The notes beneath the pieces are model-generated. The model ran no database searches and had not been told where the DNA came from. It saw only the letters and a list, made by a program, of their open reading frames with translations. From the NCBI GenBank assembly GCA_040769125.1, contig JAXGLO010000001.1:656069-720068 (forward strand): DNA of 64,000 bases, given 5' to 3'. Position numbers and translations under genes: made by a program. This stretch comes from Thermoleophilia bacterium (GTDB taxonomy: Bacteria; Actinomycetota; Thermoleophilia; UBA2241). Shown here piece after piece: positions 4,583 to 25,665 of the stretch (within the stretch, counting starts at the first letter, position 1; each line of letters opens with the position of its first letter).

Positions 4583-4590
4583 CGCAGCCG

Positions 4591-6969: not shown

Positions 6970-7084
6970 GGCATGAATGCGGCATTCGCGGTCGCCGGCG
7001 AGACTCCTTCGCTGCGACTGCGGCGCGTGCCGCCGTCTGCCGGGCGATGGCGGAGCTCCGGGCGTCGGCTATAATCGATGCCCC

Positions 7085-9465: not shown

Positions 9466-9875
9466 AGGTCACGCAGGTAACGGTCTTTCTCGAGCATCGC
9501 AGTGGGCGGCTTGCGGAGGTCGCCAGGCTTCTCGGCGCCGCCGGCATCAACATTCGCGGGTTCTCGACGACCGAGGCGGCCGAGTACGGCATCCTCCGCC
9601 TCATCGTCCCCGATCCGGAGCTGACGCGGCGCGTGCTGCACGACGCCGGTTTCGCGACCCAGCTCTCGTCGGTGATCTGCGTGCACGTTCCCGACAAGCC
9701 CGGAGGGCTTGCCCGCGTGCTCGACGAGCTCGCCGCTGTCGGCGTCTCGATCGAGTACCTGTACAGCATCTCTTTCGAGGTCATATGCTTCGCCGTCCAC
9801 GACATCGACCGGGCCGTCGAGTTGCTCTCGGGCACGGTCGACCTCTTCAGCGACGAGGAGGTCCGCGCCCTGTGA
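9462..9875 (+). CDS. ACT-domain (amino-acid-binding) protein
   Basis: ATGA overlap with iorB. Two ACT-like halves (VTVFLEHRSGRLAEVARLLGAAGINIRGF ... VHVPDKPGGLARVLDELAAVGVSIEYLY). Confidence 0.8.
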   Translation: MKVTQVTVFLEHRSGRLAEVARLLGAAGINIRGFSTTEAAEYGILRLIVPDPELTRRVLHDAGFATQLSSVICVHVPDKPGGLARVLDELAAVGVSIEYLYSISFEVICFAVHDIDRAVELLSGTVDLFSDEEVRAL

Positions 9876-11227
9876 GCCTGCTACACGCCTCGGAAGAGCA
9901 TCTGGCAGCGGACTGCGCCGGCGGCCTGCTCTGGCAGCCGGCGGCCGAGACGCTCGATCGTGAGCAACTCGTTGCGTTGCAGGCAGCCCGGCTGCGCGAG
10001 ACGCTGCAGAGCGTCTTCGACGACGTGCCGTGGTATCGCCGGAAGCTCATCGACGCTGGGGTCGTGCCGGGCGACGTCAAGACCATCGCCGACGCGGCCG
10101 AGCTTCCCTTCACGACGAAGATCGACCTCCGCGACAGTTACCCCTTCGGCCTGCTGGCGCGCGCGCGCGAGGATATCGTTCGAGTCCATGCCTCCTCCGG
10201 GACCACCGGCAACCCCACCACGGTCGCCTATACGCGGGGGGATGTCGAGCTCTGGGCCGACCTGATCGCCCGCACGCTGGCGGCCGGTGGCGTGAGGCCG
10301 GGAGACCTGCTGCAGAACGCGTACGGTTACGGTCTCTTCACCGGTGGACTCGGCCTGCACTACGGCGCCGAACGTCTCGGCTGCACGGTGGTGCCGATCT
10401 CCGGCGGCAACACGGAGCGGCAGCTCAAGATCATGCGCGACTTCGGCGCTACGGCGCTGAGCTGCACGCCCTCATACGCGATGTATCTGGGCGAAGCCGC
10501 GCGGGATCACGGTCTGCGCCCCGAGGATCTCCCTATCCGTGTGGGGTTCCACGGTGCGGAGCCCTGGACCAACGAGCTGCGCGTCCAGATCGAAGCCGCT
10601 CTCGGCATCGACGCCCTCGACATCTACGGCCTCTCCGAGATGGGCGGGCCGGGCGTCGCCTTCGAGTGCCTCTGCAAGGACGGCATGCACATCAACGAAG
10701 ATCACTATCTGGGGGAGATCGTCGATCCCGAGACGCTGCGCCCGGTGCCCGACGGACAGGTCGGCGAACTGGTATTCACCACGCTCTCACGGCAGGCCCA
10801 GCCGCTGATCCGCTATCGCACTCGTGATCTCTGCAGGCTGATCCACGAGCCCTGCGCCTGCGGTCGTTCCTCGGTGCGCATGTCCAAGACGCTCGGCCGC
10901 AGCGACGACATGCTGATCATCAGAGGCGTCAACGTCTTCCCCAGCCAGATCGAGGAGGTGCTGATGCGCATCCCCGAGATCGAGCCGCACTACCAGATAG
11001 TCGTCGATCGCCAGGGCTACCTCGACGTCATCGAGGCCTGGGTCGAGGTCGGCGAGGACGTCTTCGCCGAGACGATGGGGGATCTCGAGCGCTTCCAGCG
11101 CAAGGTCGAGGCCGAGATCTCCAACGTGCTCAACATCCACGTGGTCGTGAAGCTCAAGGAGCCCAAGTCGATCCAGCGCTCCGAGGGTAAGGCCGTGCGC
11201 GTGATCGACCGGCGCAAACCGCTCTAG
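9872..11227 (+). CDS. paaK: phenylacetate-CoA ligase family (arylacetate-CoA ligase)
   Basis: GTGA overlap with the ACT gene. AMP-binding motif HASSGTTGNPT, LPFTTKIDLRDSYPFG, and a PaaK-type C-terminus ...RSEGKAVRVIDRR. Confidence 0.85.
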   Translation: MSLLHASEEHLAADCAGGLLWQPAAETLDREQLVALQAARLRETLQSVFDDVPWYRRKLIDAGVVPGDVKTIADAAELPFTTKIDLRDSYPFGLLARAREDIVRVHASSGTTGNPTTVAYTRGDVELWADLIARTLAAGGVRPGDLLQNAYGYGLFTGGLGLHYGAERLGCTVVPISGGNTERQLKIMRDFGATALSCTPSYAMYLGEAARDHGLRPEDLPIRVGFHGAEPWTNELRVQIEAALGIDALDIYGLSEMGGPGVAFECLCKDGMHINEDHYLGEIVDPETLRPVPDGQVGELVFTTLSRQAQPLIRYRTRDLCRLIHEPCACGRSSVRMSKTLGRSDDMLIIRGVNVFPSQIEEVLMRIPEIEPHYQIVVDRQGYLDVIEAWVEVGEDVFAETMGDLERFQRKVEAEISNVLNIHVVVKLKEPKSIQRSEGKAVRVIDRRKPL

Positions 11228-11257
11228 GCTCGGGGGAGGGCTGTCGCCGAGGCGGCA

Positions 11258-11277
11258 GGCCTGCGGCTGGTCAGGCC
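11258..11277. terminator. weak stem-loop between convergent paaK and PBP genes
   Basis: GGCCTG-N8-CAGGCC, a 6-bp GC stem with no U-tract. Confidence 0.25.
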
Positions 11278-11281
11278 GTCG

Positions 11282-13576
11282 TCAGCTGAGGAGGCCGATG
11301 AGCCAGCGCCCGAGCGCGCCGGCGAGGCCCGTGGAGCCGTCGCCGGTGGCGGCCGCGCACCCGGGCAGATCCCGACGCTGCCACAGATCCTGATTTCGCC
11401 AGGTTGTCGCCGGCGCGGCGCTCTTCGTGGGCGTCGGCGTGGGTTTGGGCGTGGTCGGCGTGGGCGTCGGCGTGGGTTTGGGCGTGGTCGGCGTGGGCGT
11501 CGGCGTGGGCTTCACCGTCGGCCTGATGGTCTTGGTGTCTGTAGGCGTCGCAGTTGCCGTAGGCGAGGGCTTGGACGACGTCGAGGGCGATGGAGACGGC
11601 GACTTGCCGGAGAGCTTGCCCTTCCAGTTGCCGAAGGTCCAGGGGTGCTGCTTGAAGCTGGGATGAGGCCCGTCCCCGAGCACAGCGGCGAAGAACTTGG
11701 CCCACATCGGTGCGCAGTAGGTGCCGCCGTAGGCGCCGCTCATCGGCGAGTTCTTGTCTATGTCGCCCATCCACACAGCGGCGGCGAGGTTGGGCGTGTA
11801 GCCGCAGTACCACACGTCCCAGCCGTTCTCGGTGGTGCCGGTCTTGCCCGCGCGCGGGTACGGGAAGTACGCGCCTGTGGCGGAGCCGGTGCCCGGCGAC
11901 ACGGTGACGGTCTCCAGGATCTTGGTGACGGCCGATGCGGCGCCGGGGGGGATGGCGCGCTGCCCCTTCGTGCTGGGCTTCCAGTCGACGCGCCCGCTGG
12001 GGAGGACGACCTTCACGATCGCCTCGGGCTTGTGGCGGACGCCGCTGCCGGCCAGCGTTGCGTAGGCGTTGGCCATCTCCAGCGGGGTCACGCCCGAGGT
12101 ACCGAGGGTGACAGAGGGCACCGCGGCCAGCGAGCTGCTGATGCCCATCTTGTGTGCGGTGTCGACGGTGCTCTGCGGCCCGACGTCGACGGAGAGCTGG
12201 GCGTACACGACGTTGTCGGAGATCGTGGTCGCTGCGGCCACGCTCTCCATACCACCGGGGCCGTCGCCGTTCACGACCCACGGAGGTGCATATGAGCCCA
12301 TGGGGATGACGCAGGGGCTCTTGGAGGGGTAGTAGGTGGTGTAGGGGTTCATGCCGCGCAGGATCGCAGCGGTGAGCGTGAAGGGCTTCATGGAGGAGCC
12401 CGCCTGGCGCTTGGCCTGCCAGGCGAGGTTGAACTTCTGCTGCTTGTAGTCGAGGCCGCCGACCATCGTGCGGATATAGCCATTGCGGGGGTCGATGGCC
12501 ACCAGCGCCGCAGACGGCTTGAAGCCGAAGTTGAGCGGCCCGGTGGTCTCTTTGATGATCTCGATCGCCTTGCTCTGCCAGGCAAGGTCAAGCGACGTGT
12601 GCACTCGCAAGCCGCCCTCGAAGACCTGGCGGGAGCCGTAGTGCTTCGTGAGCACCCGGGTAACGTAGTCGGTGAAGTAGTCGGCCAGCGGGTTTGATGA
12701 GGCGGGCGGGTGCTTGTAGACGCGAACCTTCTTTCGCTTGGCCGCGTCGGCCTTCGCCTGCGTGATGTAGCCCTGGTCGGCCATGGCCTGAAGCACGAGG
12801 TCGCGGCGCTTCTTGGCTTCCGTGGAATCATTGGCGGGGTTGAAGGCTGAGGGCGCCTTGGGCAGCGCCGCCAGCAGCGCCGCCTGGGTGAGGTTGAGAT
12901 CCGAGACGTGCTTGTGGAAGAAAGTGCGCGCCGCGGCCTCGGCGCCGTACGCGTTGGCGCCGTAGAAGATGGTGTTGAGGTAGGCGGTGAGGATCTTGTC
13001 TTTCGACCAGCGATCCTCGAGTTGCCAGGCAAGGACGGCCTCGCGGATCTTGCGGGTGTACGTCTGCTCGTCGCCGACATAGGCGTTCTTCACGTACTGC
13101 GAGGTGATCGTGGAGCCGCCCTGCACGATGCCGCCGGCGCGGATGTTCTCGACGAAAGCGCGCACGACTCCCTGGAAGTCGACCCCGTGATGCGCGTAGA
13201 AGCGCTCATCCTCGATGGCCACCGTGGCCTGCTTGAGGACCTCCGGGATCCGGGCGCTGCTGACGAGCGTGCGGTTCTCGGCGCCGTGGAGCTCAGCAAT
13301 CTTCTTGTTGTGCCGGTCGTAGATGACCGTGTTCCTGGCCAGGGGATTGCGGGCCGACGTCTCGAGAGAGGGCAGATTGCGGGAGAGCGCGAACAGGGCG
13401 CCTGCGCCGACCCCGAGGGTCGCGACGACGAGCAGGGTCAGCACCGCGAGGACGAAGCGGAGCCAGCCGAGGCGCCGGCGCTTCTTGGCTTTCGCCTTGT
13501 CGCGGCGCTTGCGGCTGTGCCGCGCGGTGTCTTCGGCCGAGACGCTGTATCGGGTGTAGTCAGCCACGCTCGTCAT
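11282..13576 (-). CDS. class A penicillin-binding protein (bifunctional transglycosylase/transpeptidase) with Pro/Thr-rich C-terminal tail
   Basis: ATG at 13576 precedes a basic stretch plus TM anchor (LRFVLAVLTLLVVATLGVG). GT51 motifs EDERFYAHHGVD and RKIREA; transpeptidase motifs SSMKP, SDN and KTGT. The upstream 106 codons of the ORF are Arg-rich read-through. Confidence 0.85.
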   Translation of the reverse strand: MTSVADYTRYSVSAEDTARHSRKRRDKAKAKKRRRLGWLRFVLAVLTLLVVATLGVGAGALFALSRNLPSLETSARNPLARNTVIYDRHNKKIAELHGAENRTLVSSARIPEVLKQATVAIEDERFYAHHGVDFQGVVRAFVENIRAGGIVQGGSTITSQYVKNAYVGDEQTYTRKIREAVLAWQLEDRWSKDKILTAYLNTIFYGANAYGAEAAARTFFHKHVSDLNLTQAALLAALPKAPSAFNPANDSTEAKKRRDLVLQAMADQGYITQAKADAAKRKKVRVYKHPPASSNPLADYFTDYVTRVLTKHYGSRQVFEGGLRVHTSLDLAWQSKAIEIIKETTGPLNFGFKPSAALVAIDPRNGYIRTMVGGLDYKQQKFNLAWQAKRQAGSSMKPFTLTAAILRGMNPYTTYYPSKSPCVIPMGSYAPPWVVNGDGPGGMESVAAATTISDNVVYAQLSVDVGPQSTVDTAHKMGISSSLAAVPSVTLGTSGVTPLEMANAYATLAGSGVRHKPEAIVKVVLPSGRVDWKPSTKGQRAIPPGAASAVTKILETVTVSPGTGSATGAYFPYPRAGKTGTTENGWDVWYCGYTPNLAAAVWMGDIDKNSPMSGAYGGTYCAPMWAKFFAAVLGDGPHPSFKQHPWTFGNWKGKLSGKSPSPSPSTSSKPSPTATATPTDTKTIRPTVKPTPTPTPTTPKPTPTPTPTTPKPTPTPTKSAAPATTWRNQDLWQRRDLPGCAAATGDGSTGLAGALGRWLIGLLS
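11427..11513. repeat. 33-bp tandem repeat (about 2.6 copies) encoding the PTPTPTTPKPT linker of the PBP
   Basis: GTGGGCGTCGGCGTGGGTTTGGGCGTGGTCGGC at 11427-11459 is repeated exactly at 11460-11492, with a partial third copy. Confidence 0.75.
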
Positions 13577-13987
13577 TCTACAAGACTGTGGCGGCGCAGG
13601 TTTTCCGACCGTCTTACGCAGGCGCTCAGCCGCGGCTGCCGTCTCCCCCCTGCGCCGGCTCCTTCTTCGTCTGCGCCATGCGCGCCACGATGATCGACGC
13701 TTCGCAGAGGGTTGCGATCGGCAAGAGCATCGCGAGCTACGGGAAGGCGTCCGGTCCGGGCGCGATAACTGCAGGAAGCAGCGCTTCTCGTCAGGCGTGA
13801 AGACCGGGGTTCCCGGCGGGGAAGGGCGAAGAAGCTGCCGTAAAGCATAGTTGGCACCCGGGGCAGAGAGATGCCCTGCTCGGCGGCGTCCCACTCGGTT
13901 GCGTGCGTCTTGCGCGCTTTGCTACAGTACGGACGCCGCGGCTGCAGGCAGGCTGCAGTCCCGGATTCGGCGGATGCGGACCTCCAA

Positions 13988-14356
13988 GTGACGAACGCAC
14001 ACCTCATCAACTGGCTCTATGTGTGGCTCTTCATCGCGGCTGGCGGTGCGCTGGTGGTTCTCATCCTGCTTGTGTCCAAGGTGGTGAACCCCAGTCACCC
14101 CTCGGTGGAGAAGTTCTCCGCGTACGAATGCGGCATTCCGCCTGTGGGCAGCCCGTGGGCTCCGTTTGCCGTGCGGTACTTCGTCTTCGGCCTTCTCTTC
14201 CTCGTCTTCGACGTGGAGGCGGCCTTCCTGTTCCCGTGGGCGCTGGCGTTTCGCGGTCTCGGCACTGCCGGCTTCGTGGCGGCGCTCGTGTTCATTGCCG
14301 TGCTGGGGTTCGGTCTGCTGTACGTATGGCGTAAGGGGGCGCTCGAGTGGGCCTGA
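13988..14356 (+). CDS. nuoA: NADH-quinone oxidoreductase subunit A
   Basis: GTG at 13988. Three TM helices, with SAYECG and [23 protein letters not shown] signature. Confidence 0.85.
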
Positions 14357-14901
14357 GTGGCGCGACCGGGAAGCTCGCAGGGCTGCGATTCCCGAAGCTT
14401 GAGCATTTCCAGCAGTCCAACATCATCACCACTACGGCCGACCTCGTCTTCAGCTGGGCGCGCTCACACTCCGTGTTCCCCTTCACGTACGGCCTCGCCT
14501 GCTGCGCGATCGAGATGCTGAGTTCCGGCTTCGCCCGCTTCGACGTCTCCCGGTACGGAATGGAGGTGTTCCGGCCTTCGCCTCGTCAGTGCGATCTGAT
14601 GATCGTGGCGGGGACAGTCAGCGAGAAGATGGCGCCTGTGCTGGTGCGGCTCTACGAGCAGATGGCCGAGCCCAAATGGGTGATCAGCCTGGGCTCGTGC
14701 GCCAACAGCGGAGGGCCGTTCTACGACGGCTACGCGGTGGTCAACGGCGTCGACAAGCTGGTGCCCGTCGACGTGTACATCCCCGGCTGCCCGACGCGTC
14801 CCGAGGCGCTCTTTCAGGGGCTGCTCGAGCTTCAGGGCATAATCCAGCAGCACAAGTTCGTGGTCGAGAAGCCGTCCCCGACGCCGGCAGAGAAGGGCTA
14901 A
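14347..14901 (+). CDS. nuoB: NADH-quinone oxidoreductase subunit B
   Basis: [26 protein letters not shown] and IPGCPTRPE (N2 cluster ligands). Confidence 0.9.
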
Positions 14902-14904
14902 GGC

Positions 14905-15399
14905 GTGGCGCTCCAGATCGGCACTAACCCGCTTGCGCTCGACGCGCTTGTCGAGCTGCTCGTCACCGAGTTCGGCGGCGAGCTGCGCGATGTGCGCTCA
15001 CAGGAGCCCTGGACAGTCGTCGCGCGCTGCGAAGCCGCACAGCTGAAGGCCGTCGCGCGGCGCCTTCGCGAGCACGCCGAGGTCGGGTACGAGACGCTCA
15101 ACTTCATCGCCGGAGTCGACAGGGTCTCAAGCCTCGAGGCTGTCTATCACCTCTACTCGTGGAAGACCAATACCTACCTCGAGCTCCACGTCGAGCTGCC
15201 GCGCGAAGCCGCCGAGGTCGGCACCGTCACCGACGTATGGCCGGCGGCCGACTGGCATGAGCGGGAGGCGTGGGACATGCTTGGCATTCGCTTCGCCGGT
15301 CACCCCGACCTGCGCCGGATCCTTCTCAAGGACGACTTCGTCGGCCACCCGCTGCGCAAGGACTACGTCGATAGCGCCAGGAACCACCCGCATGTTTGA
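14905..15399 (+). CDS. nuoC: NADH-quinone oxidoreductase subunit C
   Basis: 164 aa. VWPAADWHEREAWDMLGIRFAGHPDLRRILL is the 30-kDa subunit signature. Confidence 0.9.
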   Translation: MALQIGTNPLALDALVELLVTEFGGELRDVRSQEPWTVVARCEAAQLKAVARRLREHAEVGYETLNFIAGVDRVSSLEAVYHLYSWKTNTYLELHVELPREAAEVGTVTDVWPAADWHEREAWDMLGIRFAGHPDLRRILLKDDFVGHPLRKDYVDSARNHPHV

Positions 15400-16606
15400 C
15401 CACTTCGCGACACCTGAGCCCGACGAGGCGCTCAAGCTCGCGTTGCGGCGCATCGAGGAGTCGAAGGATCGCGGCGAGGGCTCCGACCTCGAGGGCCTCG
15501 CCCTCAACGAGGTCGTGGTCAACATGGGGCCGCAGCACCCTTCCACGCACGGCGTTCTGCGCCTGCTGGTCACGCTGGACGGCGAGCTCGTCAAGGACGT
15601 CATCCCCGTCATCGGGTACCTGCACCGCTGCAAGGAGAAGCTGGCCGAGAAGCGCACCTACTACCAGTACATCCCGATCCTCGATCGCACCGAGTACGTC
15701 GCGGGCATTAACTGTGAATGGGCGTACGTGATGACGGTCGAGAAACTCGCCGGGATTACACCGACGCGGCGGGCGGAGTTCATCCGCGTCGCCACCGCCG
15801 AGCTCAACCGTATCGCCAGCCACCAGGTGGCGCTCGGCACCTTCACCGCCGACCTCTCCCCTCTGGGGACGGCCATGGCCTTCTATTCGTTCCGCGACCG
15901 CGAGCTGATCCTCGACCTCCTCGAGGAGGTTAGCGGCGGGCGCATGATGTTCAACTATTTCCGCTTCGGCGGCGTCCGCGACGACCTTCCCGACGGCTGG
16001 GTCGAGAAGTGCCGCGACCTCATGCGGCGGATGCCGAAGCTCATTGACGAGTACGAGGCGCTGCTCGACGACAACGCCACCTTCCTGCAACGCTGCGTGG
16101 GTAAAGGTGTCATCAGCCAGCAGGACGTCGTCGACTACGGCATCACCGGCCCCAACGCGCGCGCCTCGGGTGTCGCGCTGGATCTCCGCCGCACGCGGCC
16201 GTACTCCGTGTACCCGGAACTCGACTTCGCAGTCTGCACCGCCACCCACGGCGACATCTTCGACCGCTACAGAGTGCGTATCGACGAGATGCGTGAATCG
16301 GCCAAGATCGTCGAGCAGTGCCTCGACATGATGCCCGGCGGTCCGGTGCGCCTCGGCTCGCGGCGCGCGCCCTACGTCATCGCGCCGCCGCCCGGCGCCT
16401 GCTATGTCGGCCTGGAGAACCCCCGCGGCGAGTTCGGCACGTACATTGTGAGCGACGGGTCGCGGTATCCGTACCGGCTCAAGTTCCGCGACCCCTGCTT
16501 CTGCAACCTGCAGATCTTTCCCAAGCTCCTGCGTGGCAACAAGATCGCCGACGCGGTGGCCATCTCGGGGAGCATCGACCTGATTCTGGGAGGGATCGAC
16601 CGCTAG
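15392..16606 (+). CDS. nuoD: NADH-quinone oxidoreductase subunit D
   Basis: ATG at 15392 (8-nt overlap with nuoC). NMGPQHPSTHGVLRL, the 49-kDa signature, and C-terminus ISGSIDLILGGIDR. Confidence 0.9.
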   Translation: MFDHFATPEPDEALKLALRRIEESKDRGEGSDLEGLALNEVVVNMGPQHPSTHGVLRLLVTLDGELVKDVIPVIGYLHRCKEKLAEKRTYYQYIPILDRTEYVAGINCEWAYVMTVEKLAGITPTRRAEFIRVATAELNRIASHQVALGTFTADLSPLGTAMAFYSFRDRELILDLLEEVSGGRMMFNYFRFGGVRDDLPDGWVEKCRDLMRRMPKLIDEYEALLDDNATFLQRCVGKGVISQQDVVDYGITGPNARASGVALDLRRTRPYSVYPELDFAVCTATHGDIFDRYRVRIDEMRESAKIVEQCLDMMPGGPVRLGSRRAPYVIAPPPGACYVGLENPRGEFGTYIVSDGSRYPYRLKFRDPCFCNLQIFPKLLRGNKIADAVAISGSIDLILGGIDR

Positions 16607-17734
16607 ATGGATCTCATGGAGCTCATCCTCGGCGTACTTCGCGCCCTGCTCTTTGTGGTGATCGCCTACGCGGTGGTGTTCGTGGCGGCGCTCGTCAACA
16701 TCATCTTCGAACGTCGCGCTCTCGCGGTCATGCAGGATCGCCTCGGGCCCAACCGCACCGGGCCACAGGGTGTATTCCAGAGCGTCGCCGACGCCTTCAA
16801 GATGATTGGCAAGGAGGACTTCCGGCCGACGCTCGCCGACCCGTATCTCTTCACGCTGGCGCCGATTCTGGTCATGTTTGGCGCCGTTGCCATACAGGTC
16901 GTGCTCCCGTACACGGGCGGCCTCATGGCGACCGATCTCGACGTCGGAATCATCTTCATCGTCGCAATCTCCAGCTTCACGACGCTGGCCCTCCTGCTCG
17001 GCGGCTGGTCCTCGCGCAACAAGTGGTCACTGGTCGGGGCGCTTCGCGCCGCCGCTCAGATGATCTCTTACGAGGTGCCCATGATCCTCGGCCTGCTGGT
17101 CGTCGCCATGATCGTGGGCTCGCTCAGCCTCAAGGACGTCGTGGCCGCCCAGGCCGGTTACCAGTGGATCGCGTTCTACGCGCCCTTCACCTTCCTGCTC
17201 TTCTACATCCCGTCGATCGCCGAACTTAATCGCGGCCCGTTCGACCTTCCCGAATCCGAGTCCGAGCTCGTCGGCGGCTACGGCACCGAGTACTCAGGAA
17301 TGCGGTTCGGCATGTTCTTCCTCAACGAGTATGCGGGAATGACCATCATGTCGATGGTGGTCGTCACCTTGTTCTTCGGCGGCTGGCAAGGGCCGTGGGC
17401 GGACGCCGTGGTCTTCTGGGGCGTCTCCTGGATCGGCCTCCTGTGGTTCGTCCTCAAGGCGTACATCCTCGTTTTCACGCTGATCTGGGTCCGGCTCACG
17501 TTACAGCGCCTGCAGGCCGACCAGCTCATGGCCTTCGCCTGGAAGGTCCTCATCCCATTGGGCTTCCTCAACATCCTGGGGAGCGCCGCCGTCATTCTGT
17601 GGGCGCCTCACTGGAAGATCGCAATGGCCATCTTCAGCTGGGCCTCCCTGATCGCCTTCGTGGCCCTCTTCGACCCGATCCTCAAGTGGCGTCTGCGTAA
17701 GCAGCGCGAGCGCCTCCCGGTGGTGAACGCCTGA
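16607..17734 (+). CDS. nuoH: NADH-quinone oxidoreductase subunit H
   Basis: Starts immediately after the nuoD stop. ERRALAVMQDRLGPNRTGPQGVFQSVADAFK and AELNRGPFDLPESESELVGGY motifs. Confidence 0.9.
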   Translation: MDLMELILGVLRALLFVVIAYAVVFVAALVNIIFERRALAVMQDRLGPNRTGPQGVFQSVADAFKMIGKEDFRPTLADPYLFTLAPILVMFGAVAIQVVLPYTGGLMATDLDVGIIFIVAISSFTTLALLLGGWSSRNKWSLVGALRAAAQMISYEVPMILGLLVVAMIVGSLSLKDVVAAQAGYQWIAFYAPFTFLLFYIPSIAELNRGPFDLPESESELVGGYGTEYSGMRFGMFFLNEYAGMTIMSMVVVTLFFGGWQGPWADAVVFWGVSWIGLLWFVLKAYILVFTLIWVRLTLQRLQADQLMAFAWKVLIPLGFLNILGSAAVILWAPHWKIAMAIFSWASLIAFVALFDPILKWRLRKQRERLPVVNA

Positions 17735-18495
17735 TGCTCGGCATTATCAAAGCGATGTGCACGACGCTGAGTCATCTGCCCAAGAAGAAGACCACCGTGC
17801 AGTACCCTGAGCAGCGCGAGCTCCTGCCTGAGCGCAGTCGCGGCCTCATCCGGATGGTCGTCGACCCGGAGACTGGTGAGCCGCGGTGCCGCGCGTGCAC
17901 GGTCTGCGAGACCACCTGCCCTGCGCAGGTGATCCGGGTCAACTACGAGAGCACGTACGATCTCCCGGCCCCCAACGCGGCGCGCATCGCCGAGGTGCGT
18001 CTGGCCGTGCAGCCTGACGTCGATCTCACGCTGCTCCAGCCGGTGATCGACGACCAGCGTGAGCACGGCAAGGAGATCATCGCCGTGCTGCAGAATGTGC
18101 AAGACGTTTACGGCTATCTGCCGCGGGCTGCGCTGCAGGAGGTCGCCCTCCAGACCGGCACGCCGCTCTCGCAGATCTACGGCGTCTCCAGCTTCTACAA
18201 CCAGTTCCGGCTGTCGCCCATCGGCAAGCGCCTCATCGATGTGTGTCACGGTACGGCCTGCCACGTCGCCGGGGCGCCGCAGATCACTGAGGCTCTCGAA
18301 GAGGAGCTGGGCATCGCCGACGGCAAGACGACCAGCGACAGGGAGTTCACGCTGAGCTCCGTGGTGTGCATGGGCGCGTGCTCGCAGGCGCCCGTCATGC
18401 GTATCGGCGACCAGACCTTCGGCAATCTCACCCCCGACAAGACACGCAGGATCATCCGCGACCTCATGACGCAGGTCGGGGCCAAGAAGGGGTGA
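17734..18495 (+). CDS. fusion protein: NuoI N-terminal half (single CxxCxxCxxxCP motif) + NuoE-type thioredoxin-like [2Fe-2S] domain
   Basis: aa 1-70 (MLGIIKAMCTTLSHLPKKKTTVQYPEQRELLPERSRGLIRMVVDPETGEPRCRACTVCETTCPAQVIRV) align with the NuoI N-terminus through its first ferredoxin motif. aa ~115-245 are NuoE-like (VCHGTAC...CMGACSQAP, i.e. Cx4C...Cx3C). TGATG overlap with nuoH. Confidence 0.8.
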   Translation: MLGIIKAMCTTLSHLPKKKTTVQYPEQRELLPERSRGLIRMVVDPETGEPRCRACTVCETTCPAQVIRVNYESTYDLPAPNAARIAEVRLAVQPDVDLTLLQPVIDDQREHGKEIIAVLQNVQDVYGYLPRAALQEVALQTGTPLSQIYGVSSFYNQFRLSPIGKRLIDVCHGTACHVAGAPQITEALEEELGIADGKTTSDREFTLSSVVCMGACSQAPVMRIGDQTFGNLTPDKTRRIIRDLMTQVGAKKG

Positions 18496-18506: not shown

Positions 18507-20417
18507 ATGACCGACGATCTCACCAGGAACACGGCCCAGAGCGGCGGCGAGCAGGCCGCCGAGGCGCGCAACGTCAAGGTCTCGCAGGCCGCCGACGGCC
18601 GCTTGCGCGTGAGCGTGTGCGCCGGCACGGCCTGCGTGTTCGCGGGGTCGATGGCCGTCCACGACGCCTTCGTCGAGGAGGTCGAGGCGGCGGGGCTCAA
18701 AGACCGGGTCGAGGTCTCGATCATCGGCTGCCACGGCCTCTGCACGCAGAGCCCCGTGGTCGTCGCCTCGGACGACGTGTTCTACGGCAAGGTCAAGCTT
18801 AAGGACGTCAAGGCGATTGTCGGCGAGCATCTGGTGGACGGCGCCCCGGTCGAGAGGCTCATCTACAAGGATCCCGCGACCGGCGAGGCCGTGCGCGACT
18901 GGCACGAGATCGGGTTCTACCGTGAGCAGACACGTATCGCCCTGCGCAACGTGGGCATCGTCAACCCCGAGAGCATCGACGATGCGCTGGCGCGCGGCAG
19001 CTACGAAGCGGCGCGTACGGCGCTTACGACGATGACGCCGGACGAGATCATCGAGCTGGTGGAAGCGTCCGGCATCCGTGGGCGCGGTGGCGCCGGGTTC
19101 CCCACCGGCGCCAAGTGGCGGGTCGCGCGACAGTCCTCGGGGGACGAGAAGTACGTCATCTGCAACGGCGACGAGGGCGACCCCGGCGCGTTCATGGACG
19201 CCTCCATCATGGACGGCGATCCGCACGCCGTGCTCGAGGGCATGCTGATCGCCGGCTTCGCGATCGGCGCACACGAGGGCTACATCTTCGTGCGCGCCGA
19301 GTACCCCCTGGCGGTCAGGCGCCTCAGAGCGGCGATCGCCGCCGCCGAGGAGCGCGGGTATCTCGGCGACGATATCTTCGGCTCCGGCTGGCGGTTCCGC
19401 GTTCATCTCAAGCTCGGCGCGGGCGCCTTCGTCTGTGGCGAGGAGACCGCGCTCATCGCCTCGATCGAGGGCCGGCGGGGCACGCCGCGCGTGCGGCCGC
19501 CATACCCCGCCGTCTCCGGCCTCGGCGGCAAGCCGACCAGCATCAACAACGTCGAGACTCTAGCGAACATCCCGTGGATCGTCACGCACGGAGCCGAGGC
19601 GTACAGCGAGCTCGGCTGTGATGCCAGTTGCGGCACCAAGGCCTTCTCGCTGGCCGGCAAGATCGTCAACGGCGGTCTCGCTGAGGTTCCCATGGGCTCA
19701 ACCCTGCGCCACCTCATCTTCGAGGTCGGCGGCGGCGTCAAGGACGGCAGGGAGTTCAAGGCCGTCCAGCTCGGCGGCCCTTCGGGCGGTTGTCTGCCCG
19801 CGGCCCTGCTCGACACGGCGATCGACTACGAGAGTCTGGCCGCCACCGGCGCCATCGTCGGGTCGGGCGGCATGGTGGTCATGGACGACCAGACCTGTAT
19901 GGTCGACCTCGCACGGTTCTTCCTGCATTTCACGCAGAAGGAAAGCTGCGGCAAGTGCGTCCCCTGCCGTCTTGGCACGAAGCGCATGCTCGAGATCCTC
20001 GACCGCATCTGTGCTGGTCAGGGCTGCGAAGGCGACATCGAGATCCTCGAGGAGCTTGCCCACTCCATCATCGAAGGCTCGCTGTGTGCTCTGGGTGGCA
20101 CGGCGCCCAACCCCGTGCTCACGACGATCAGGTACTTCCGCGACGAATACGAGGCGCATATCCGCGAGAAGCGCTGCCCCGCTGGCGCGTGCAAGGCGCT
20201 CATCACCTACTACATCGATCCGGAGGCCTGCACCGGTTGCACCTTGTGCGTCAAGAAGTGCCCCAGTCAGGCGATCACCGGCGAGAAGAAGCAGCCGCAC
20301 GTCATCGACGCGGCGGGCTGTATCAAGTGCGATACGTGCCGTCAGGTGTGCAAGTTCGACGCCGTCAAGGTGCGCTCGGGCATCCCGCAGGCGGCCGGCG
20401 TGGACGGGGAGGGGTGA
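18507..20417 (+). CDS. nuoF: NuoF/HydB-type flavoprotein (FMN, NADH site, N3 cluster) with extra N-terminal [2Fe-2S] and C-terminal 2x[4Fe-4S] domains
   Basis: N-terminal VCAGTAC...GCHGLCTQSP; GRGGAGFPTGAKW (FMN); ICNGDEGDPGAF (NADH); ESCGKCVPCR...SLCALG (N3). C-terminal CTGCTLCVKKCP and CIKCDTCRQVC. Confidence 0.85.
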   Translation: MTDDLTRNTAQSGGEQAAEARNVKVSQAADGRLRVSVCAGTACVFAGSMAVHDAFVEEVEAAGLKDRVEVSIIGCHGLCTQSPVVVASDDVFYGKVKLKDVKAIVGEHLVDGAPVERLIYKDPATGEAVRDWHEIGFYREQTRIALRNVGIVNPESIDDALARGSYEAARTALTTMTPDEIIELVEASGIRGRGGAGFPTGAKWRVARQSSGDEKYVICNGDEGDPGAFMDASIMDGDPHAVLEGMLIAGFAIGAHEGYIFVRAEYPLAVRRLRAAIAAAEERGYLGDDIFGSGWRFRVHLKLGAGAFVCGEETALIASIEGRRGTPRVRPPYPAVSGLGGKPTSINNVETLANIPWIVTHGAEAYSELGCDASCGTKAFSLAGKIVNGGLAEVPMGSTLRHLIFEVGGGVKDGREFKAVQLGGPSGGCLPAALLDTAIDYESLAATGAIVGSGGMVVMDDQTCMVDLARFFLHFTQKESCGKCVPCRLGTKRMLEILDRICAGQGCEGDIEILEELAHSIIEGSLCALGGTAPNPVLTTIRYFRDEYEAHIREKRCPAGACKALITYYIDPEACTGCTLCVKKCPSQAITGEKKQPHVIDAAGCIKCDTCRQVCKFDAVKVRSGIPQAAGVDGEG

Positions 20418-20423: not shown

Positions 20424-22898
20424 GTGGCGACGACCGCTGACGACGTCATGCGCGCTCAGGCTCAGCGCCCCGACCAGATCACGCTGACCATCGACGGCCA
20501 CGAGGTCCGCTGCGACCGCGGCGAGACGATCCTGGAGGCGGCGCGGCGCGTGGGCGTCTACATCCCCACGCTCTGCCACGAGCCGCGCCTGCCGGCCACT
20601 GCCGCCTGCCGCGTCTGCCTCGTGGAGGTGGAGGGCGCCCGCAAGACGGTTCCCAGCTGCTCCACGGCCGCCGCTGAGGGCATGGTCGTGCACACGCAGA
20701 CCGAGAAGGTCCGCGCCATGCGCCGCCTCTACCTCGAGCTCCTGCTCAGCGACCACAGCTCCTTCTGCACGCCACCCTGTCGCGACGCCTGCCCCACGCA
20801 CATCAAGATCCCACAGTTCCTGGATCTGATCGCGCACGGCGACTACAGGAACGGCGTTCGCAAGCTGCGTGAGGATCTGCCCTTCCCGTCCGTTCTGGGA
20901 CGCGTCTGCCCGCGGCCCTGCGAGAGTTCCTGTCGCCGGGATCTCGCCGACAACCCCATCTCGATCTGCTGGCTGCATCGCTTCATGGGCGACCAGTGCC
21001 TCGATGAGCAGCAGGACGGCGAGCTGCTGCTGCCTGTCGATCCCAAACCTGAGAGCGGCAAGCGCATCGCCATCGTCGGCGGCGGCCCCGCCGGCCTCTC
21101 CGCCGCCTTCTACTCCCGGCTCGAGGGCCACGCGGTCAAGATCTTCGAGGCGCAGGCCAAGCCCGGCGGTATGCTGCGCTACGGCATTCCCAGCTATCGC
21201 ATGCCTCGCGAGGTGCTCGACAAGGAGCTGAACATCCTCTGGCGCATGGGCGTCGAGCTCCAGACAGACGTACGCCTCGGCGTCGACTTCCAGCTCGGCG
21301 ATCTTCGCGACGAGTACGACGCCGTATTCCTCGCCCTGGGCGCCTTCAACTCGAACGAAATGAAGATCCCCGGCGAGGACGCCGACGGCGTCGTCACCGC
21401 CATCGATTTCCTCGGCGACCTCGAGCGCGACGGCACCGTCCACGTCGGCAACAAGGTCACCGTCATCGGCGGCGGCTTCACCGCCATGGACGCCTGCCGC
21501 ACCGCCGTGCGCCTCGGTGCAGAAGAGGTCACCTGTCTCTACCGGCGCTCGCGCAAGGAGATGCCCGCCCACTACACCGAGGTCGACGAGGCCGAGGAGG
21601 AGGGCGTCAAGCTGGAGCTGCTGGTGGCGCCGGTGCGCATCATGGTCGAAGGCAACAAGGTTGCCGGCATCGAGATGCAGCGCATGGAGCTCGGCGAGCC
21701 CGACGCCTCCGGCCGCCGTCGCCCCGTGCCCGTCGAGGGGTCGGAGTTCGTCATCGAGTGCGACCAGGTTGTCGCTGCCATCGGCCAGTATCCCAAACTC
21801 GACGGCACCAGCGAGGAGCAAGGCATCAAGCGCACTCGCTGGCGCACGATCGAGGTCGACGACTGGACGCTGCAGACCGCCGACCCCAAGGTCTTCGCCG
21901 GCGGCGACGTCGTGCTCGGCGCGCAGACCGTCGTCCAGGCGATCGCCCAGGGCAAGAAGGCCGCCTGGAGCATCGACGCCTTCTTGCGCGGCGCCGACAT
22001 GAAGGATGTCTCCCGGCAGCTCGCCGAGCTCAAGGCGTCGCCGTTCCTGGCCGCGCTTTCTCAGAAGGACGACCTCGACCCGCGTATCGCACGCCTCGCC
22101 GAGATCCCGCCGGTGTTCATCGACATGACTACCGACGTTACGCATCCAGCGCCGCCGGCTGAGATGCCCAGGCTCACGCCCGACGAACGCAAGACCAACT
22201 TCGAGCAGATCGAGTTCGGGCTCCACGAGGACGTTGCGGTGAACGCCGCCAAGCTCTGCCTGCAGTGTCACTGCCCGGCCAACGGCTCGTGCGAGCTGCA
22301 GAAGCTCGGCATCGAATACGAGGTCTTCGAGAACCGGTTCCACGGCGGCGAGACGCACGACTACCCCGCCGACTTCCGCCACGATTTCGTCATGCGCGAG
22401 CCCAACCGCTGCATCAACTGCGGTCGCTGCGTCGAGGTCTGCCGGCAGGAGATCGGGGCGAGCTGCTACGACTTCATGGGCCGCGGTTTCGACGCCATCG
22501 TCTCGACTCCCGACAACCTCCCGCTGCACATGGTCGGCTGCATCTCCTGTGGCAAGTGTGCCGAGACATGCCCCACCGGTGCGATCACCACCAACCCGCG
22601 GCTGCTCATCCGCTACGATCTCGACGAGAGCCGCTGCATCTTCTGCGGCGACTGCGTCGAGGCGTGCCCCTACGATGCGCTGGAGCAGACGAGCTACTTC
22701 GAGCTGGCCAGCTATAGTCGCACGGATCTGGTGCAGGAGTCGCTGTACGTACGCGAGCCACGCCCCGCCGATGGCCTCGGGGAGACGGTGCCCGACCAGG
22801 CGCCTCATACCCGCGACAGCCAGCGCGGCCGCGGCTGGGTCTGGACTCCCATCAAGGACGAGCCCGTAGTGCTCGACGACTCGGAGGGGGGCGCCTGA
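20424..22898 (+). CDS. multidomain protein: NuoG/HydA-type [2Fe-2S] + GltD/NfnB-like FAD/NAD(P)H oxidoreductase + NuoG/HydA-type [4Fe-4S] domains + NuoI C-terminal half
   Basis: aa 18-100: plant-type [2Fe-2S] (LCH..ACRVC..PSCS). aa ~105-525: GltD-like (FCTPPCRDACPTHIKIPQF, VCPRPCESSC, IVGGGPAGL, VIGGGFTAMD...LYRRS). aa 610-722: CLQCHCPANGSCELQ, CINCGRCVEVC and CISCGKCAETCPTGAI. aa 725-775: LIRYDLDESRCIFCGDCVEACPYDALEQTSYFELASYSRTDL, which is the NuoI second motif plus the NuoI C-terminal signature. Confidence 0.8.
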   Translation: MATTADDVMRAQAQRPDQITLTIDGHEVRCDRGETILEAARRVGVYIPTLCHEPRLPATAACRVCLVEVEGARKTVPSCSTAAAEGMVVHTQTEKVRAMRRLYLELLLSDHSSFCTPPCRDACPTHIKIPQFLDLIAHGDYRNGVRKLREDLPFPSVLGRVCPRPCESSCRRDLADNPISICWLHRFMGDQCLDEQQDGELLLPVDPKPESGKRIAIVGGGPAGLSAAFYSRLEGHAVKIFEAQAKPGGMLRYGIPSYRMPREVLDKELNILWRMGVELQTDVRLGVDFQLGDLRDEYDAVFLALGAFNSNEMKIPGEDADGVVTAIDFLGDLERDGTVHVGNKVTVIGGGFTAMDACRTAVRLGAEEVTCLYRRSRKEMPAHYTEVDEAEEEGVKLELLVAPVRIMVEGNKVAGIEMQRMELGEPDASGRRRPVPVEGSEFVIECDQVVAAIGQYPKLDGTSEEQGIKRTRWRTIEVDDWTLQTADPKVFAGGDVVLGAQTVVQAIAQGKKAAWSIDAFLRGADMKDVSRQLAELKASPFLAALSQKDDLDPRIARLAEIPPVFIDMTTDVTHPAPPAEMPRLTPDERKTNFEQIEFGLHEDVAVNAAKLCLQCHCPANGSCELQKLGIEYEVFENRFHGGETHDYPADFRHDFVMREPNRCINCGRCVEVCRQEIGASCYDFMGRGFDAIVSTPDNLPLHMVGCISCGKCAETCPTGAITTNPRLLIRYDLDESRCIFCGDCVEACPYDALEQTSYFELASYSRTDLVQESLYVREPRPADGLGETVPDQAPHTRDSQRGRGWVWTPIKDEPVVLDDSEGGA

Positions 22899-23410
22899 TG
22901 CCTGGTGGCGACTTCCACCCCTGGCTGTTCGTAATGGTTGCGGCGTGGGTCCTCATCTGCGGGCTCGGCGTCGTGCTCTTCAGAAACATCGTGTACTCTG
23001 CCGTCGCGATGGTGTTCTGCTTCCTCGGCATTGCCTTCGCCTACGCCCTGCTCAATTCGGCGCTTCTGGCGATCGTGCAGATCCTCGTCTACGTCGGCGC
23101 CATCTCGGTGGTGATCATCTTCGCGATCATGCTCACTGAAAAGCGGAAGGGCGGCTTCGACCTGTTCTTCAACCGCCAGACGGTGGTAGCGGCGCTTGTC
23201 GCGATCGCCGGCGCCGTCGCGCTTGCCGTGGCGGTCGGCGGCGCCGGGCTCGGCGCTGTGGTTCCCAAGGCGTTCAACCCCGGGGTGCGGCGGCTCTCCC
23301 AGATCCTGTTCGACCGCTTTGTCTTCCCGTTCGAGCTGGTGTCGCTGGTTCTGGTAGCCGCCATGGTTGGCGCCATCGTTCTCTCGCTCAAGAAGGAGGA
23401 GCGGCCGTGA
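22898..23410 (+). CDS. nuoJ: NADH-quinone oxidoreductase subunit J
   Basis: TGATG overlap with the preceding gene. 5 TM; LLAIVQILVYVGAISVVIIFAIML signature. Confidence 0.85.
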   Translation: MPGGDFHPWLFVMVAAWVLICGLGVVLFRNIVYSAVAMVFCFLGIAFAYALLNSALLAIVQILVYVGAISVVIIFAIMLTEKRKGGFDLFFNRQTVVAALVAIAGAVALAVAVGGAGLGAVVPKAFNPGVRRLSQILFDRFVFPFELVSLVLVAAMVGAIVLSLKKEERP

Positions 23411-23715
23411 GCGCCCTCTCGTGGTGGCTTGTTCTGGCGTCTCTGCTCTTCTGCATCGGCGCCTTCGGCGTGCTTTCGAGGCGCAACATCATCCAGGTGG
23501 TGATGAGCCTCGAGGTGATGCTCAACGCCGTCAACCTGGCGCTCGTGGCGATCGCCAACTTCCGCGGCGGCTCCGAGGGCGCCGGCACGCTCTTCTCGTT
23601 GTTCATCATCGCCGTGGCGGCCGCCGAGGTCGCCGTGGGTCTCGCCATCATCATCGCCAACTATCGCAATAAGCGGACCGTCCAGGTGGATCGGTTCGAC
23701 GAGCTCAAGGGCTAG
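23407..23715 (+). CDS. nuoK: NADH-quinone oxidoreductase subunit K
   Basis: 102 aa, 3 TM; SLEVMLNAVNLALVA...AVAAAEVAVGLAII. Confidence 0.9.
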   Translation: MSALSWWLVLASLLFCIGAFGVLSRRNIIQVVMSLEVMLNAVNLALVAIANFRGGSEGAGTLFSLFIIAVAAAEVAVGLAIIIANYRNKRTVQVDRFDELKG

Positions 23716-23727: not shown

Positions 23728-25665
23728 GTGGAAGCAGCAGTACAGCAGATCGTGGTGGAGGGTACGCAGTCCCTGAAGGCTGCGGTAGCGCTGATCCCAC
23801 TGCTGCCGCTGGCCGGATTCCTGCTCACCCTGCTCTTCGGCAAGCGGATGGGCGAGCGGGCGCACGTGCTGCCCGTGGCTCTCGTCACCGCCACGGCCGC
23901 CCTCTCGGTGTACGTCTTCGTGTGGGCCTTCCGGCACCCTGGGGAGGCGTTCGTCTGGGACGCGTTCTCCTGGATCGTCGCCGGTGGTTACTCGGTGCAG
24001 TGGGGCTTTCTCGTCGACCCGCTCACCGGCATCATGCTGCTGGTCGTCGGCCTTATCGGCATGCTGGTGCACTATTACTCGATCGGCTACATGAAGGGCG
24101 ACGGCGGCTACTACCGCTTCTTCGCCTATCTCAACCTCTTCATGTTCGCGATGTTCATGCTCATCCTCGCGGACAACTACCTGCTGCTCTTCCTCGGCTG
24201 GGAGGGCGTCGGCCTCTGCTCGTACCTGCTCATCGCGTTCTGGTTCCGCAAGAAGAGCGCGAGCCAGGCCGGCAAGAAGGCGTTCCTGGTCAACCGTGTA
24301 GGCGATTTCGGTTTCCTGCTGGCGATGTTCCTCATCTTCGTCACGACCGGCACGCTGCAGTTCACGGGCGTCTTCGACAAGGCTGAGATGATCGGATCGG
24401 GCACGCTCCTCTGTATCTGTCTGCTGCTCTTCACCGGTGCGGTCGGCAAGAGCGCCCAGTTCCCGCTGCACGTGTGGCTGCCCGATGCCATGGAGGGTCC
24501 CACGCCGGTCAGCGCCCTCATTCACGCCGCCACGATGGTCAACGCCGGCGTCTACATGGTGGCGCGCTCGTATCCGCTGTACATCAACGCGGAGACGGCG
24601 ATGCTCGTGGTCATGGCCGTCGGCGCCTTCACCGCGATCTACTCGGCCTACATCGCGATCACCCAGAACGACATCAAGAAGGTGATCGCCTACTCGACCA
24701 TCTCGTCACTGGGATTCATGTTCCTTGCGCTCGGCGCGGGGGCGTGGACGGCCGGCATCTTCTACCTCTTCGTGCACGGCTTCTTCAAGGGCCTCCTCTT
24801 CCTGTGCTCCGGCTCGGTGATCCATGCTGTGGGCGGCGAGCAGGACATGCGGCGGATGGGAGGGCTGCACACGCGTATCCCGATCACCTTCTGGACGATG
24901 CTCATCGGCGCGATCGCGCTCATCGGCGTCTTCCCGTTCGCGGGCTTCTGGGCCAAGGACGAAATCCTGGGCGGCGCCTTCATGGGCGGCTACTACGTGG
25001 TTTGGGCAGTCGGCATCGTCACAGCCTTCCTCACGGCGATCTTCGCCTTCCGCATGATCTTCCTCACCTTCTTCGGCGAGTGCCGGGCGCCCGCCGAGGT
25101 CCAGAGCCACATCCACGAGTCGCCATGGGTCATGACCCTGCCGCTCGTGCTGCTGGCTATCCCTTCTGTGGCTGCGGGCGTCCTCGTCGGCTGGCCGCCG
25201 GAGTCCGGCTGGATCCACTCGTTCCTGGCGCCCGTGTTCTTCGACGCCAAGCATCACGAGTTCAGCTGGCTCGGCGTCGGCGGCGGCCTCATGGTTCTCT
25301 CGGTGGCCGTCGCGCTGCTGGGCGTCTACGTCGCCTACGTGATGTACATGCGTCGTACGGAGCTGCCTGGCCAGCTTGCGCAGCGCTTCCCGGCGGCCTA
25401 CAGGGCTTCGCTGAACAAGCTGTACATGGATGAGGCGTACGAGGTCGTGCCGATCCGCAGCACGATCGGCCTCGCCACCTGGCTGTGGAAGTTCTTCGAC
25501 GTCCGCGTCATCGACGGTGCGGTCAACGGTGTGGCCCGGCTGTGGGGCGGCTTCGGTGCGCGTCTGCGCCCGCTGCAGACTGGGCAGGTGCAGAACTACG
25601 CGCTCTCGATCTTCGCCGGCATGGTCATCCTGGTCGTCGTCCTCGCCTGGATCTGGGGGGCCTGA
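23728..25665 (+). CDS. nuoL: NADH-quinone oxidoreductase subunit L
   Basis: 645 aa antiporter-like subunit. GWEGVGLCSYLLIAFW, KSAQFPLHVWLPDAMEGPTPVSALIHAATMV. Confidence 0.9.
   Translation: MEAAVQQIVVEGTQSLKAAVALIPLLPLAGFLLTLLFGKRMGERAHVLPVALVTATAALSVYVFVWAFRHPGEAFVWDAFSWIVAGGYSVQWGFLVDPLTGIMLLVVGLIGMLVHYYSIGYMKGDGGYYRFFAYLNLFMFAMFMLILADNYLLLFLGWEGVGLCSYLLIAFWFRKKSASQAGKKAFLVNRVGDFGFLLAMFLIFVTTGTLQFTGVFDKAEMIGSGTLLCICLLLFTGAVGKSAQFPLHVWLPDAMEGPTPVSALIHAATMVNAGVYMVARSYPLYINAETAMLVVMAVGAFTAIYSAYIAITQNDIKKVIAYSTISSLGFMFLALGAGAWTAGIFYLFVHGFFKGLLFLCSGSVIHAVGGEQDMRRMGGLHTRIPITFWTMLIGAIALIGVFPFAGFWAKDEILGGAFMGGYYVVWAVGIVTAFLTAIFAFRMIFLTFFGECRAPAEVQSHIHESPWVMTLPLVLLAIPSVAAGVLVGWPPESGWIHSFLAPVFFDAKHHEFSWLGVGGGLMVLSVAVALLGVYVAYVMYMRRTELPGQLAQRFPAAYRASLNKLYMDEAYEVVPIRSTIGLATWLWKFFDVRVIDGAVNGVARLWGGFGARLRPLQTGQVQNYALSIFAGMVILVVVLAWIWGA

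Follow-up and report, generated by a model that had tools for sequence, protein, structure and literature searches.

NuoI (TYKY) is the 2x[4Fe-4S] subunit of complex I and carries clusters N6a and N6b. In a ferredoxin fold of this type, each cluster is ligated by three cysteines of one motif and a fourth cysteine from the other, and we know of no natural precedent for such a fold being divided between two polypeptides. The 11-subunit complex I-like enzymes, which have no N-module, follow the gene order nuoABCDHIJKLMN, and in 14-subunit operons the N-module is encoded between nuoD and nuoH. Here we describe a split nuoI in a 64,000-nucleotide stretch of contig JAXGLO010000001.1 from an uncultured member of the Thermoleophilia (Actinomycetota); this whole stretch is called the window, and coordinates refer to it unless another locus is named. 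A tight operon on the + strand of the window has the order nuoA-B-C-D-H-[I'::E]-F-[G::GltD::I'']-J-K-L-M-N, with the N-terminal and C-terminal halves of NuoI at the two ends of a three-gene cassette. We refer to the open reading frames (ORFs) of the cassette as I'E (253 aa), F (636 aa, NuoF-like), and G (824 aa).

The best solved relatives of all three cassette proteins are NfnABC and StnABC, transhydrogenases of the Bfu family that bifurcate electrons among NADH, NADPH, and ferredoxin (9bov, 8oh5, 9n5u; PMC11829005, PMC10482914). In NfnABC, electrons follow the path FAD-A7-A6-A3-A2-A1-[B1-FMN-C1]-B3-B4, and the A2-A4-A5 clusters branch off towards an Fdh-like domain without pterin, a side path described as a dead end and probably vestigial (PMC11829005). 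Cluster A7 has a lysine as a non-cysteine ligand that is reported to be conserved in all Bfu members, and in the Sporomusa enzyme, bifurcating activity fell by about 50% when this lysine was changed to Arg and by about 100% when it was changed to Cys (PMC11829005). The window shares with these enzymes the domain order of the A subunit up to A4 ([2Fe-2S], GltD/NfnL FAD-NADPH, FeS domains) and the full Bfu architecture of the B subunit. It differs from them in having the NuoI C-half where the Fdh-like domain with A5 would be, the NuoI N-half on the C subunit, and histidine rather than lysine at A7. Moreover, whereas NfnABC and StnABC are soluble, the genes of the window lie inside a nuo operon, which predicts a complex that is bound to the membrane and linked to quinone.

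The nearest described system is Nuo-Bfu, a 14-subunit complex I (subunits A-N) with a Bfu-type NuoEFG that Schut et al. 2022 (PMC9304861) proposed for Geobacter, Deferribacteres, Planctomycetes, and Nitrospirae. It likewise combines a Bfu-type NADH module with a complex I that reduces menaquinone and pumps protons, and its BfuABC genes lie mid-cluster; our comparison draws on the published description of these gene clusters (PMC9304861). That paper makes no mention of NuoI or of Actinobacteria, and no GltD/NADPH domain comes up in its passages on Nuo-Bfu. A GltD-like flavoprotein takes the place of NuoI in the Mbx-like operons known from Thermotoga and from proteobacteria (Degli Esposti 2015, PMC4758237). 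As in the window, a complex-I-like membrane module is linked there to an NAD(P)H site of the GltD type, but the window keeps NuoI, in split form, and has its GltD domain inside a NuoG/NfnA-like subunit beside NuoE and NuoF. No description of a split NuoI was found in the literature searched.

Results

The two halves of NuoI

Sequence comparisons confirm that the 253-aa ORF at 17734-18495 is a NuoI N-half fused via a linker of ~30 aa to a complete NuoE/BfuC domain, as the original prediction held. The NuoI N-half (I'E residues 1-72; 17734-17949) contains the N-terminal helix region, YPEQRELLPERSRG, and the first ferredoxin motif, C52-C55-C58-C62-P63. Residues 8-74 match positions 2-66 of the 121 positions of the TIGR01971 NuoI profile (NCBIfam; E 7e-15), and residues 4-75 match TYKY/NDUFS8 chains among solved structures (E 5e-9, 39 bits; TYKY residues 40-110). 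Thus, the N-terminal ~70 aa are homologous to NuoI. The motif itself, CRACTVCETTCP, occupies residues 52-63 and nt 17887-17922, with the coordinates and cysteine positions that had been predicted. The cysteines of I'E are at positions 52, 55, 58, 62, 171, 176, 212, and 216, a map with a single ferredoxin motif (C52-C62) and no second CxxCxxCxxxCP motif. The linker (residues 73-104; 17950-18045; S.Y.LP..N.AR...) is conserved in alignment A1 and has no family match in the Pfam and NCBIfam profile searches. Beyond it lies the thioredoxin-like [2Fe-2S] domain (18046-18495), which is complete: residues 104-244 match positions 4-144 of 145 of Pfam 2Fe-2S_thioredx (PF01257; 158.7 bits, E 1e-46), the cysteines are spaced C171-x4-C176...C212-x3-C216, and the score of I'E against the NuoE equivalog NF005722, 146.2 bits, lies above the curated cut-off of 141 bits.

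The missing half of NuoI had been placed at the C terminus of the ORF at 20424-22898, and it is found there. G has three CxxCxxCxxxC motifs, of which the last (C738, C741, C744, C748) is an orphan, and residues 726-772 match positions 71-117 of the NuoI profile (E 8.5e-17). The C-half proper (G residues 720-775; 22581-22748) carries the second motif, C738-C741-C744-C748-P749, and the FELAS segment, and is followed by a C-terminal tail (22749-22898). The two halves therefore tile TIGR01971 as 2-66 and 71-117, 2-117 of 121 overall, and their scores sum to about 115 bits. The two motifs that TIGR01971 and PRK05888 describe within one NuoI polypeptide are present here only across I'E and G together.

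A chimera built in silico from I'E residues 1-72 and G residues 720-824 was searched against solved structures. It aligns with mitochondrial TYKY/NDUFS8 in one ungapped stretch (8b9z_I 40-158, 87 bits, E 1e-23) and, nearly end to end, with Mycobacterium smegmatis NuoI (8e9g_I 8-174 of 180), the C-terminal tail included; it also matches 2fug_9 7-132. The absence of gaps indicates that the break lies in the loop between the motifs and that the normal inter-motif spacing is kept. With NuoI/Nqo9/TYKY, the two halves share YPE...R.RG, both motifs, their spacing, FEL(A), and an actinobacterial-type C-terminal tail. The genomic place between nuoH and nuoJ is likewise shared: the nuoH stop codon marks the beginning of I', the nuoJ start codon marks the end of I'', and about 68 genomes show this arrangement. 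What differs is that here there are two polypeptides, with coding parts ~4.6 kb apart and each half fused to another redox protein. Chance is ruled out by the E-values together with the conservation across genomes. The homology of both halves to NuoI, their tiling, their conservation, and their synteny are observations in their own right.

A PorD-type or generic ferredoxin origin of the N-half was also considered and was rejected on its profile scores (NuoI, E 7e-15; PorD, 0.007), as well as on the presence of an intact porD beside the split domain in the Por-linked paralogue described below.

Conservation of the split

Full-length I'E orthologues of 252-253 aa (63-79% identity) were found in >120 clusters drawn from metagenomes of JGI, ENA, NCBI, and Logan; all of the top 120 clusters in the protein search are of this kind. 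A scan of species-representative genomes gave 241 relatives, and 79 of the 241 loci were examined. Nearly all of the 79 are from metagenome-assembled genomes of uncultured Thermoleophilia or other Actinomycetota, and their habitats are soils, peat (palsa, bog, fen), lake sediment, and anaerobic reactors. By tblastn, the order nuoA-B-C-D-H-[I'E]-F-[G]-J-K-L-M-N is kept in about 68 independently assembled Thermoleophilia species genomes among these, and the NuoI halves are ~4.6 kb apart in every locus of sufficient length. All eight cysteines and both prolines of the NuoI motifs are invariant in alignments A1 and A7 (the four cysteines and Pro63 in A1), and the NuoI N-half is the best-conserved part of I'E in A1. 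Mixed sets of I'E and G fragments are misaligned by MAFFT, as the two ferredoxin motifs attract each other.

Identity to the window was compared across 27 complete loci by Spearman correlation. The identity of the E domain tracks that of F (0.86) and of the G core (0.75), but that of the NuoI N-half does not track its own fused E domain (-0.33): the N-half stays at 66-82% across loci, whereas the E domain drops to 53%. One locus, L056 (AnMBR.bin539), is particularly informative. Its NuoI halves are the closest to the window of all loci (82% and 84%) and its membrane subunits are among the closest (74-85%), whereas its F stands at 61% and its E domain (53%) and G core (56%) are the most divergent of all loci. 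These patterns indicate that the NuoI halves evolve unlike the domains covalently attached to them and, in L056, with the Nuo core. The mosaic in L056 suggests an exchange of the inner cassette, bounded on either side by the NuoI halves.

An Nfn-type cassette inside nuoI

That a NuoI half is fused to a NuoE-type domain stands, and to it can be added that the inserted module is of the NfnABC/StnABC (Bfu) type, with a GltD NADPH domain, and not an ordinary NuoEFG. The E domain of I'E has NfnC (9bov_C) and StnA (8oh5_A) as its best solved relatives. F, a BfuB-type NuoF (18507-20417), has by Pfam an N-terminal thioredoxin-like [2Fe-2S] domain, an FMN/NADH site, an N3-type cluster, and a C-terminal 2x[4Fe-4S] domain. 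It is colinear over its full length with HydB (7t2r_B), NfnB (9bov_B), and StnB (8oh5_B), with E-values of ~1e-231 to 1e-237; residues 32-620, for example, align with 7t2r_B 5-594 of 597. All features of a BfuBC core are therefore present, namely the N-terminal thioredoxin-like domain of BfuB, the FMN site, and the B3/B4 2x[4Fe-4S] domain, together with BfuC.

The NfnA/StnC-like part of G (20424-22580) was assigned from Pfam and NCBIfam matches, from its alignment with 9bov_A, and from its cysteine map. Residues 20-743 match NfnA of Caldicellulosiruptor NfnABC (9bov_A 5-697, E 1e-190), and G also matches StnC (8oh5_C) and archaeal NfnA (9n5u_A). Its domains are a [2Fe-2S] domain (residues 18-93), Fer4_20 and a GltD FAD/NADPH domain (115-523), an all-Cys site (C612/C615/C617/C623), and a NuoG/HydA-type 2x[4Fe-4S] domain (C663..C673, C706..C716). 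Both the FAD motif (GGGPAG) and the NADPH motif (GGGFTAMD...YRRSRKEMPA) are retained. His185 of G (20976-20978) aligns with Lys-170 of Csac NfnA, the fourth ligand of cluster A7, and this position is histidine in 66 of the 67 loci where it could be aligned and glutamate in the remaining one, L080.

Solved NfnA-type chains are 963-1178 aa long, whereas G ends at residue 824 with the NuoI C-half and lacks the Fdh-like, pterin-less domain that carries cluster A5 at the C terminus. The second NuoG/HydA-type ferredoxin motif, that of A4 (CISCGKCAETCPTGAIT), instead runs straight into the NuoI C-half (TNPRLLIRYDLDESRCIFCGDCVEACP). What is a dead end in NfnABC is thus fused here to the subunit that feeds N2 in complex I.

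The surrounding nuo operon

The genes around the cassette, all on the + strand, make up a complete Q-module and P-module set (NuoA, B, C, D, H, J, K, L, M, N) by ORFs, Pfam, and synteny. The first is nuoA (13871-14356), an ORF with syntenic tblastn matches in about 60 loci and an uncertain start codon. It is followed by nuoB (14347-14901), assigned from its translation and synteny, in which motifs are visible that we take to be the ligands of cluster N2, and by nuoC (14905-15399), assigned as an ORF and by synteny. The translation of nuoD (15392-16606), whose orthologues are 76-87% identical, contains GPQHPSTHG and DRTEY motifs, presumably the quinone site; no [NiFe] cysteine motifs are visible in it by eye. 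Next, nuoH (16607-17734; Pfam NADHdh, E 1.6e-108) has a stop codon that overlaps the I'E start (TGATG), and on the far side of the cassette the stop codon of G overlaps the start of nuoJ (TGATG). The 64-kb window holds no further NuoI-like ORF. Then come nuoJ (22898-23410; Pfam Oxidored_q3) and, each assigned as an ORF and by synteny, nuoK (23407-23715), nuoL (23728-25665), and nuoM (25667-27256). A 500-aa ORF with gene-like GC content at third codon positions (GC3) lies right after nuoM (27257-28759) and is probably nuoN; in related loci, NuoL/M-like tblastn matches come after nuoM. When the cassette is removed and the NuoI halves are rejoined, the operon has exactly the 11-subunit order nuoABCDHIJKLMN. 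Relative to an 11-subunit complex I, the window thus adds an NAD(P)H module inside nuoI.

Distant lineages and a Por-linked paralogue

In an all-against-all search of representatives, very few fused clusters remain at the 50% identity level, and two of them are distant. The L080 locus (359-11571, ~50% GC) encodes nuoH, I'E (251 aa), an F::GltD fusion (1048 aa), a 265-aa protein that joins NuoG N-clusters to NuoI-C, and nuoJKLMN. In its F, the C-terminal 2x[4Fe-4S] domain (B3/B4) was not detected, and Fer4_20 and GltD follow the NADH_4Fe-4S region instead. The L082 locus (27-6415; L083 is the same) encodes nuoD, nuoH, I'E (271 aa), a plain NuoF of 468 aa that lacks the additional Bfu domains, B3/B4 included, and G::GltD::I''. 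The cysteines and prolines of the NuoI motifs are invariant across the three distant lineages. Judged from these gene architectures, the constants across lineages are the split NuoI and the GltD domain, and the Bfu-specific parts are dispensable.

A soluble paralogue of the cassette, with 44-49% identity, is also present in some of the Thermoleophilia genomes that have the nuo-linked form (L069-L072, L074, L077-L079). At L070 (7712-15752), the order is porG, an intact porD, porA, [ferredoxin-half::BfuC], BfuB, and [BfuA::GltD::ferredoxin-half::PorB]; L081 is a frameshifted copy of this Por-linked cassette. The best matches of the Por-linked ferredoxin half-motif are still NuoI models. From its gene order, the split NuoI-like ferredoxin travels with the cassette and, in the Por context, serves to join an Nfn-type module to PorB.

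Other genes in the window

Just upstream of the operon, across a divergent gene, is a three-gene set on the + strand (6977-11227). It comprises an IorA-like gene (POR_N and TPP_enzyme_C, 632 aa), a possible IorB assigned by position alone (8872-9465), and a PaaK-like AMP-binding ligase. This set would serve an arylpyruvate fermentation that reduces ferredoxin, as would fit an anaerobic host that uses ferredoxin. The divergent gene, an 870-aa ORF on the - strand (11282-13894), has by eye the look of a class A penicillin-binding protein, with a long, repetitive C-terminal tail rich in Pro, Thr, and Lys (PTPTPTPTTPKPTPTPTPTTPKPTPTPT). Farther away on the - strand (44834-47035) is a 733-aa protein with an F5/8 type C (discoidin) domain and a beta-helix. 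Its GC content at first codon positions is unusually low (0.53, compared with 0.57-0.76 in the other likely genes listed), and for this reason the gene may have been acquired horizontally.

Discussion

We think it probable that the cassette of the window sits within nuoI and that a rejoined NuoI wires a proton-pumping, dual-donor NADH/NADPH:menaquinone oxidoreductase. In this proposal, a three-gene NAD(P)H-dehydrogenase cassette would have entered the nuoI of an 11-subunit operon at the loop that separates its two CxxCxxCxxxCP motifs. The NuoI N-half would thereby have come to lie at the N terminus of the first cassette protein (NuoE/BfuC), and the C-half at the C terminus of the last (NfnA/StnC-like), in place of the vestigial molybdopterin domain of soluble NfnA. 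The halves could then re-associate as one 2x[4Fe-4S] NuoI fold, with C52/55/58 and C748 predicted to ligate one cluster and C738/741/744 and C62 the other, and the re-formed domain would tether the module to NuoB/D/H.

Electrons from NADPH would pass from the FAD in the GltD domain through clusters A7-A6-A3-A2, and those from NADH from the FMN on the BfuB-type NuoF through B1 and A1 to A2. Both streams would leave by A2-A4, pass through the clusters of the split NuoI (N6a/N6b) to N2, and reach menaquinone, the reduction of which would drive proton pumping by NuoL/M/N. Such an enzyme could also equilibrate the NADH and NADPH pools. Ferredoxin may take part via the retained Bfu clusters B3/B4.

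Some of the data weigh against this reading. Neither NuoI half reaches the curated TIGR01971 cut-off of 113.05 bits (N-half, 54.6; C-half, 60.9). Structure prediction with AlphaFold2 gave a predicted local distance difference test (pLDDT) score of 33.9 for the rejoined NuoI chimera as a single sequence and of 39.0 for G596-824 joined to I'E1-107 with alignment A7, whose rows are from G only; both values are too low for a usable model of the paired halves. With His185 in place of the lysine at cluster A7, redox tuning may differ from that of Nfn, and the full Bfu core kept in the Thermoleophilia F is a hint of ferredoxin as a substrate. Donor specificity and the direction of electron flow, moreover, are read from motifs only.

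The retention of that core speaks for a rival interpretation, in which a complex I of this same architecture performs true flavin-based bifurcation or confurcation. Electrons of NAD(P)H would be split between menaquinone (downhill) and ferredoxin (uphill), or else NAD(P)H and reduced ferredoxin would jointly reduce menaquinone, as Schut et al. 2022 proposed for Nuo-Bfu (PMC9304861). F keeps every Bfu-specific domain, from the N-terminal thioredoxin-like [2Fe-2S] to the C-terminal B3/B4, and is colinear with the proven bifurcating HydB, NfnB, and StnB, and the window has ferredoxin-linked IorAB-like genes a short way upstream. However, L082 combines the split NuoI and GltD with a plain 468-aa NuoF that lacks B3/B4, B3/B4 was not detected in the F of L080 either, and the ligand of A7 is histidine at a position where lysine mutants of the Sporomusa enzyme lose activity (PMC11829005). 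Because of the plain NuoF in L082 and the replacement of the A7 lysine by His185, we argue that ferredoxin is not obligatory; the architectures of L080 and L082 likewise argue that the common denominator is NAD(P)H-to-quinone transfer and not obligate bifurcation. We regard a bifurcating or confurcating enzyme as rather unlikely.

A different objection is that the halves do not pair at all, such that the N-piece only docks the protein to the membrane or to NuoH, or is a vestige, and the orphan motif of G binds a cluster with other ligands. Against this, the four cysteines and the proline of each orphan motif do not vary across three distant lineages and >120 clusters, conservation within I'E is highest in the N-half while the attached E domain diverges, the joined halves keep the exact inter-motif spacing, and each cluster of a 2x[4Fe-4S] fold needs a cysteine from the other motif. 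Non-pairing thus strikes us as very improbable. Less credible still, to the point of being negligible, is an artefact or pseudogene in which a frameshift, a misassembly, or a chimeric contig broke a normal nuoI. Nothing was found that favours it. The identical architecture recurs in about 68 independently assembled genomes of many studies and in metagenomes from JGI, ENA, NCBI, and Logan, the frames are open with gene-like GC3 (0.87-0.90), and the junctions are translationally coupled; a frameshift or misassembly is rejected by this conservation across genomes. Both of the findings that could have overturned the original prediction, an N terminus not homologous to NuoI and a frameshift or stop that separates nuoI from nuoE, have thus failed to appear, the former in the profile, TYKY, and chimera alignments and the latter in >120 full-length orthologue clusters and about 68 syntenic genomes.

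The exact 11-subunit order that is left after removal of the cassette suggests that an N-module was recruited independently. A more far-reaching version of our proposal, which we offer only tentatively and consider doubtful as a whole, joins such independent recruitment by an 11-subunit complex, through insertion of an operon into a gene, to a membrane-bound Nfn coupled to the proton motive force that links NADH, NADPH, ferredoxin, and the menaquinone pool. In one form of this idea, the downhill step from NAD(P)H to menaquinone would drive ferredoxin reduction in a quinone-dependent bifurcating complex I; in another, the enzyme would run in reverse, and membrane potential would be spent on NADPH or reduced ferredoxin.

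The locus has a practical consequence for annotation. Orthologues of I'E are named "NAD(P)H-dependent oxidoreductase subunit E" (an NCBI record, P0272) or "NADH-quinone oxidoreductase subunit E" (JGI, in others such as P0003), and pieces from the C terminus of G appear in public records as formate dehydrogenase, ferredoxin, or NuoI. Because the NuoI half goes unrecognised and both halves fall below the cut-off, automated reconstructions may score this complex I as lacking NuoI, and the Thermoleophilia concerned are widespread in soil, peat, and sediment.

If the dual-donor reading, with a rejoined NuoI, is correct, the window encodes a natural cluster-sharing 2x[4Fe-4S] fold built from two polypeptides, brought about by the insertion of a three-gene cassette into one gene. 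It would also assign a role to the A2-A4 branch, a dead end in the solved Nfn structures, and the split ferredoxin in the pyruvate-oxidoreductase context suggests a reusable electrical connector. The locus looks like a second, independent gain of an NAD(P)H-oxidising module by an 11-subunit complex I, at a place within nuoI instead of the nuoD-nuoH junction, which bears on the long-debated modular origin of complex I, and it leads us to predict that the respiratory complex I of these Thermoleophilia has an NADPH site of its own.

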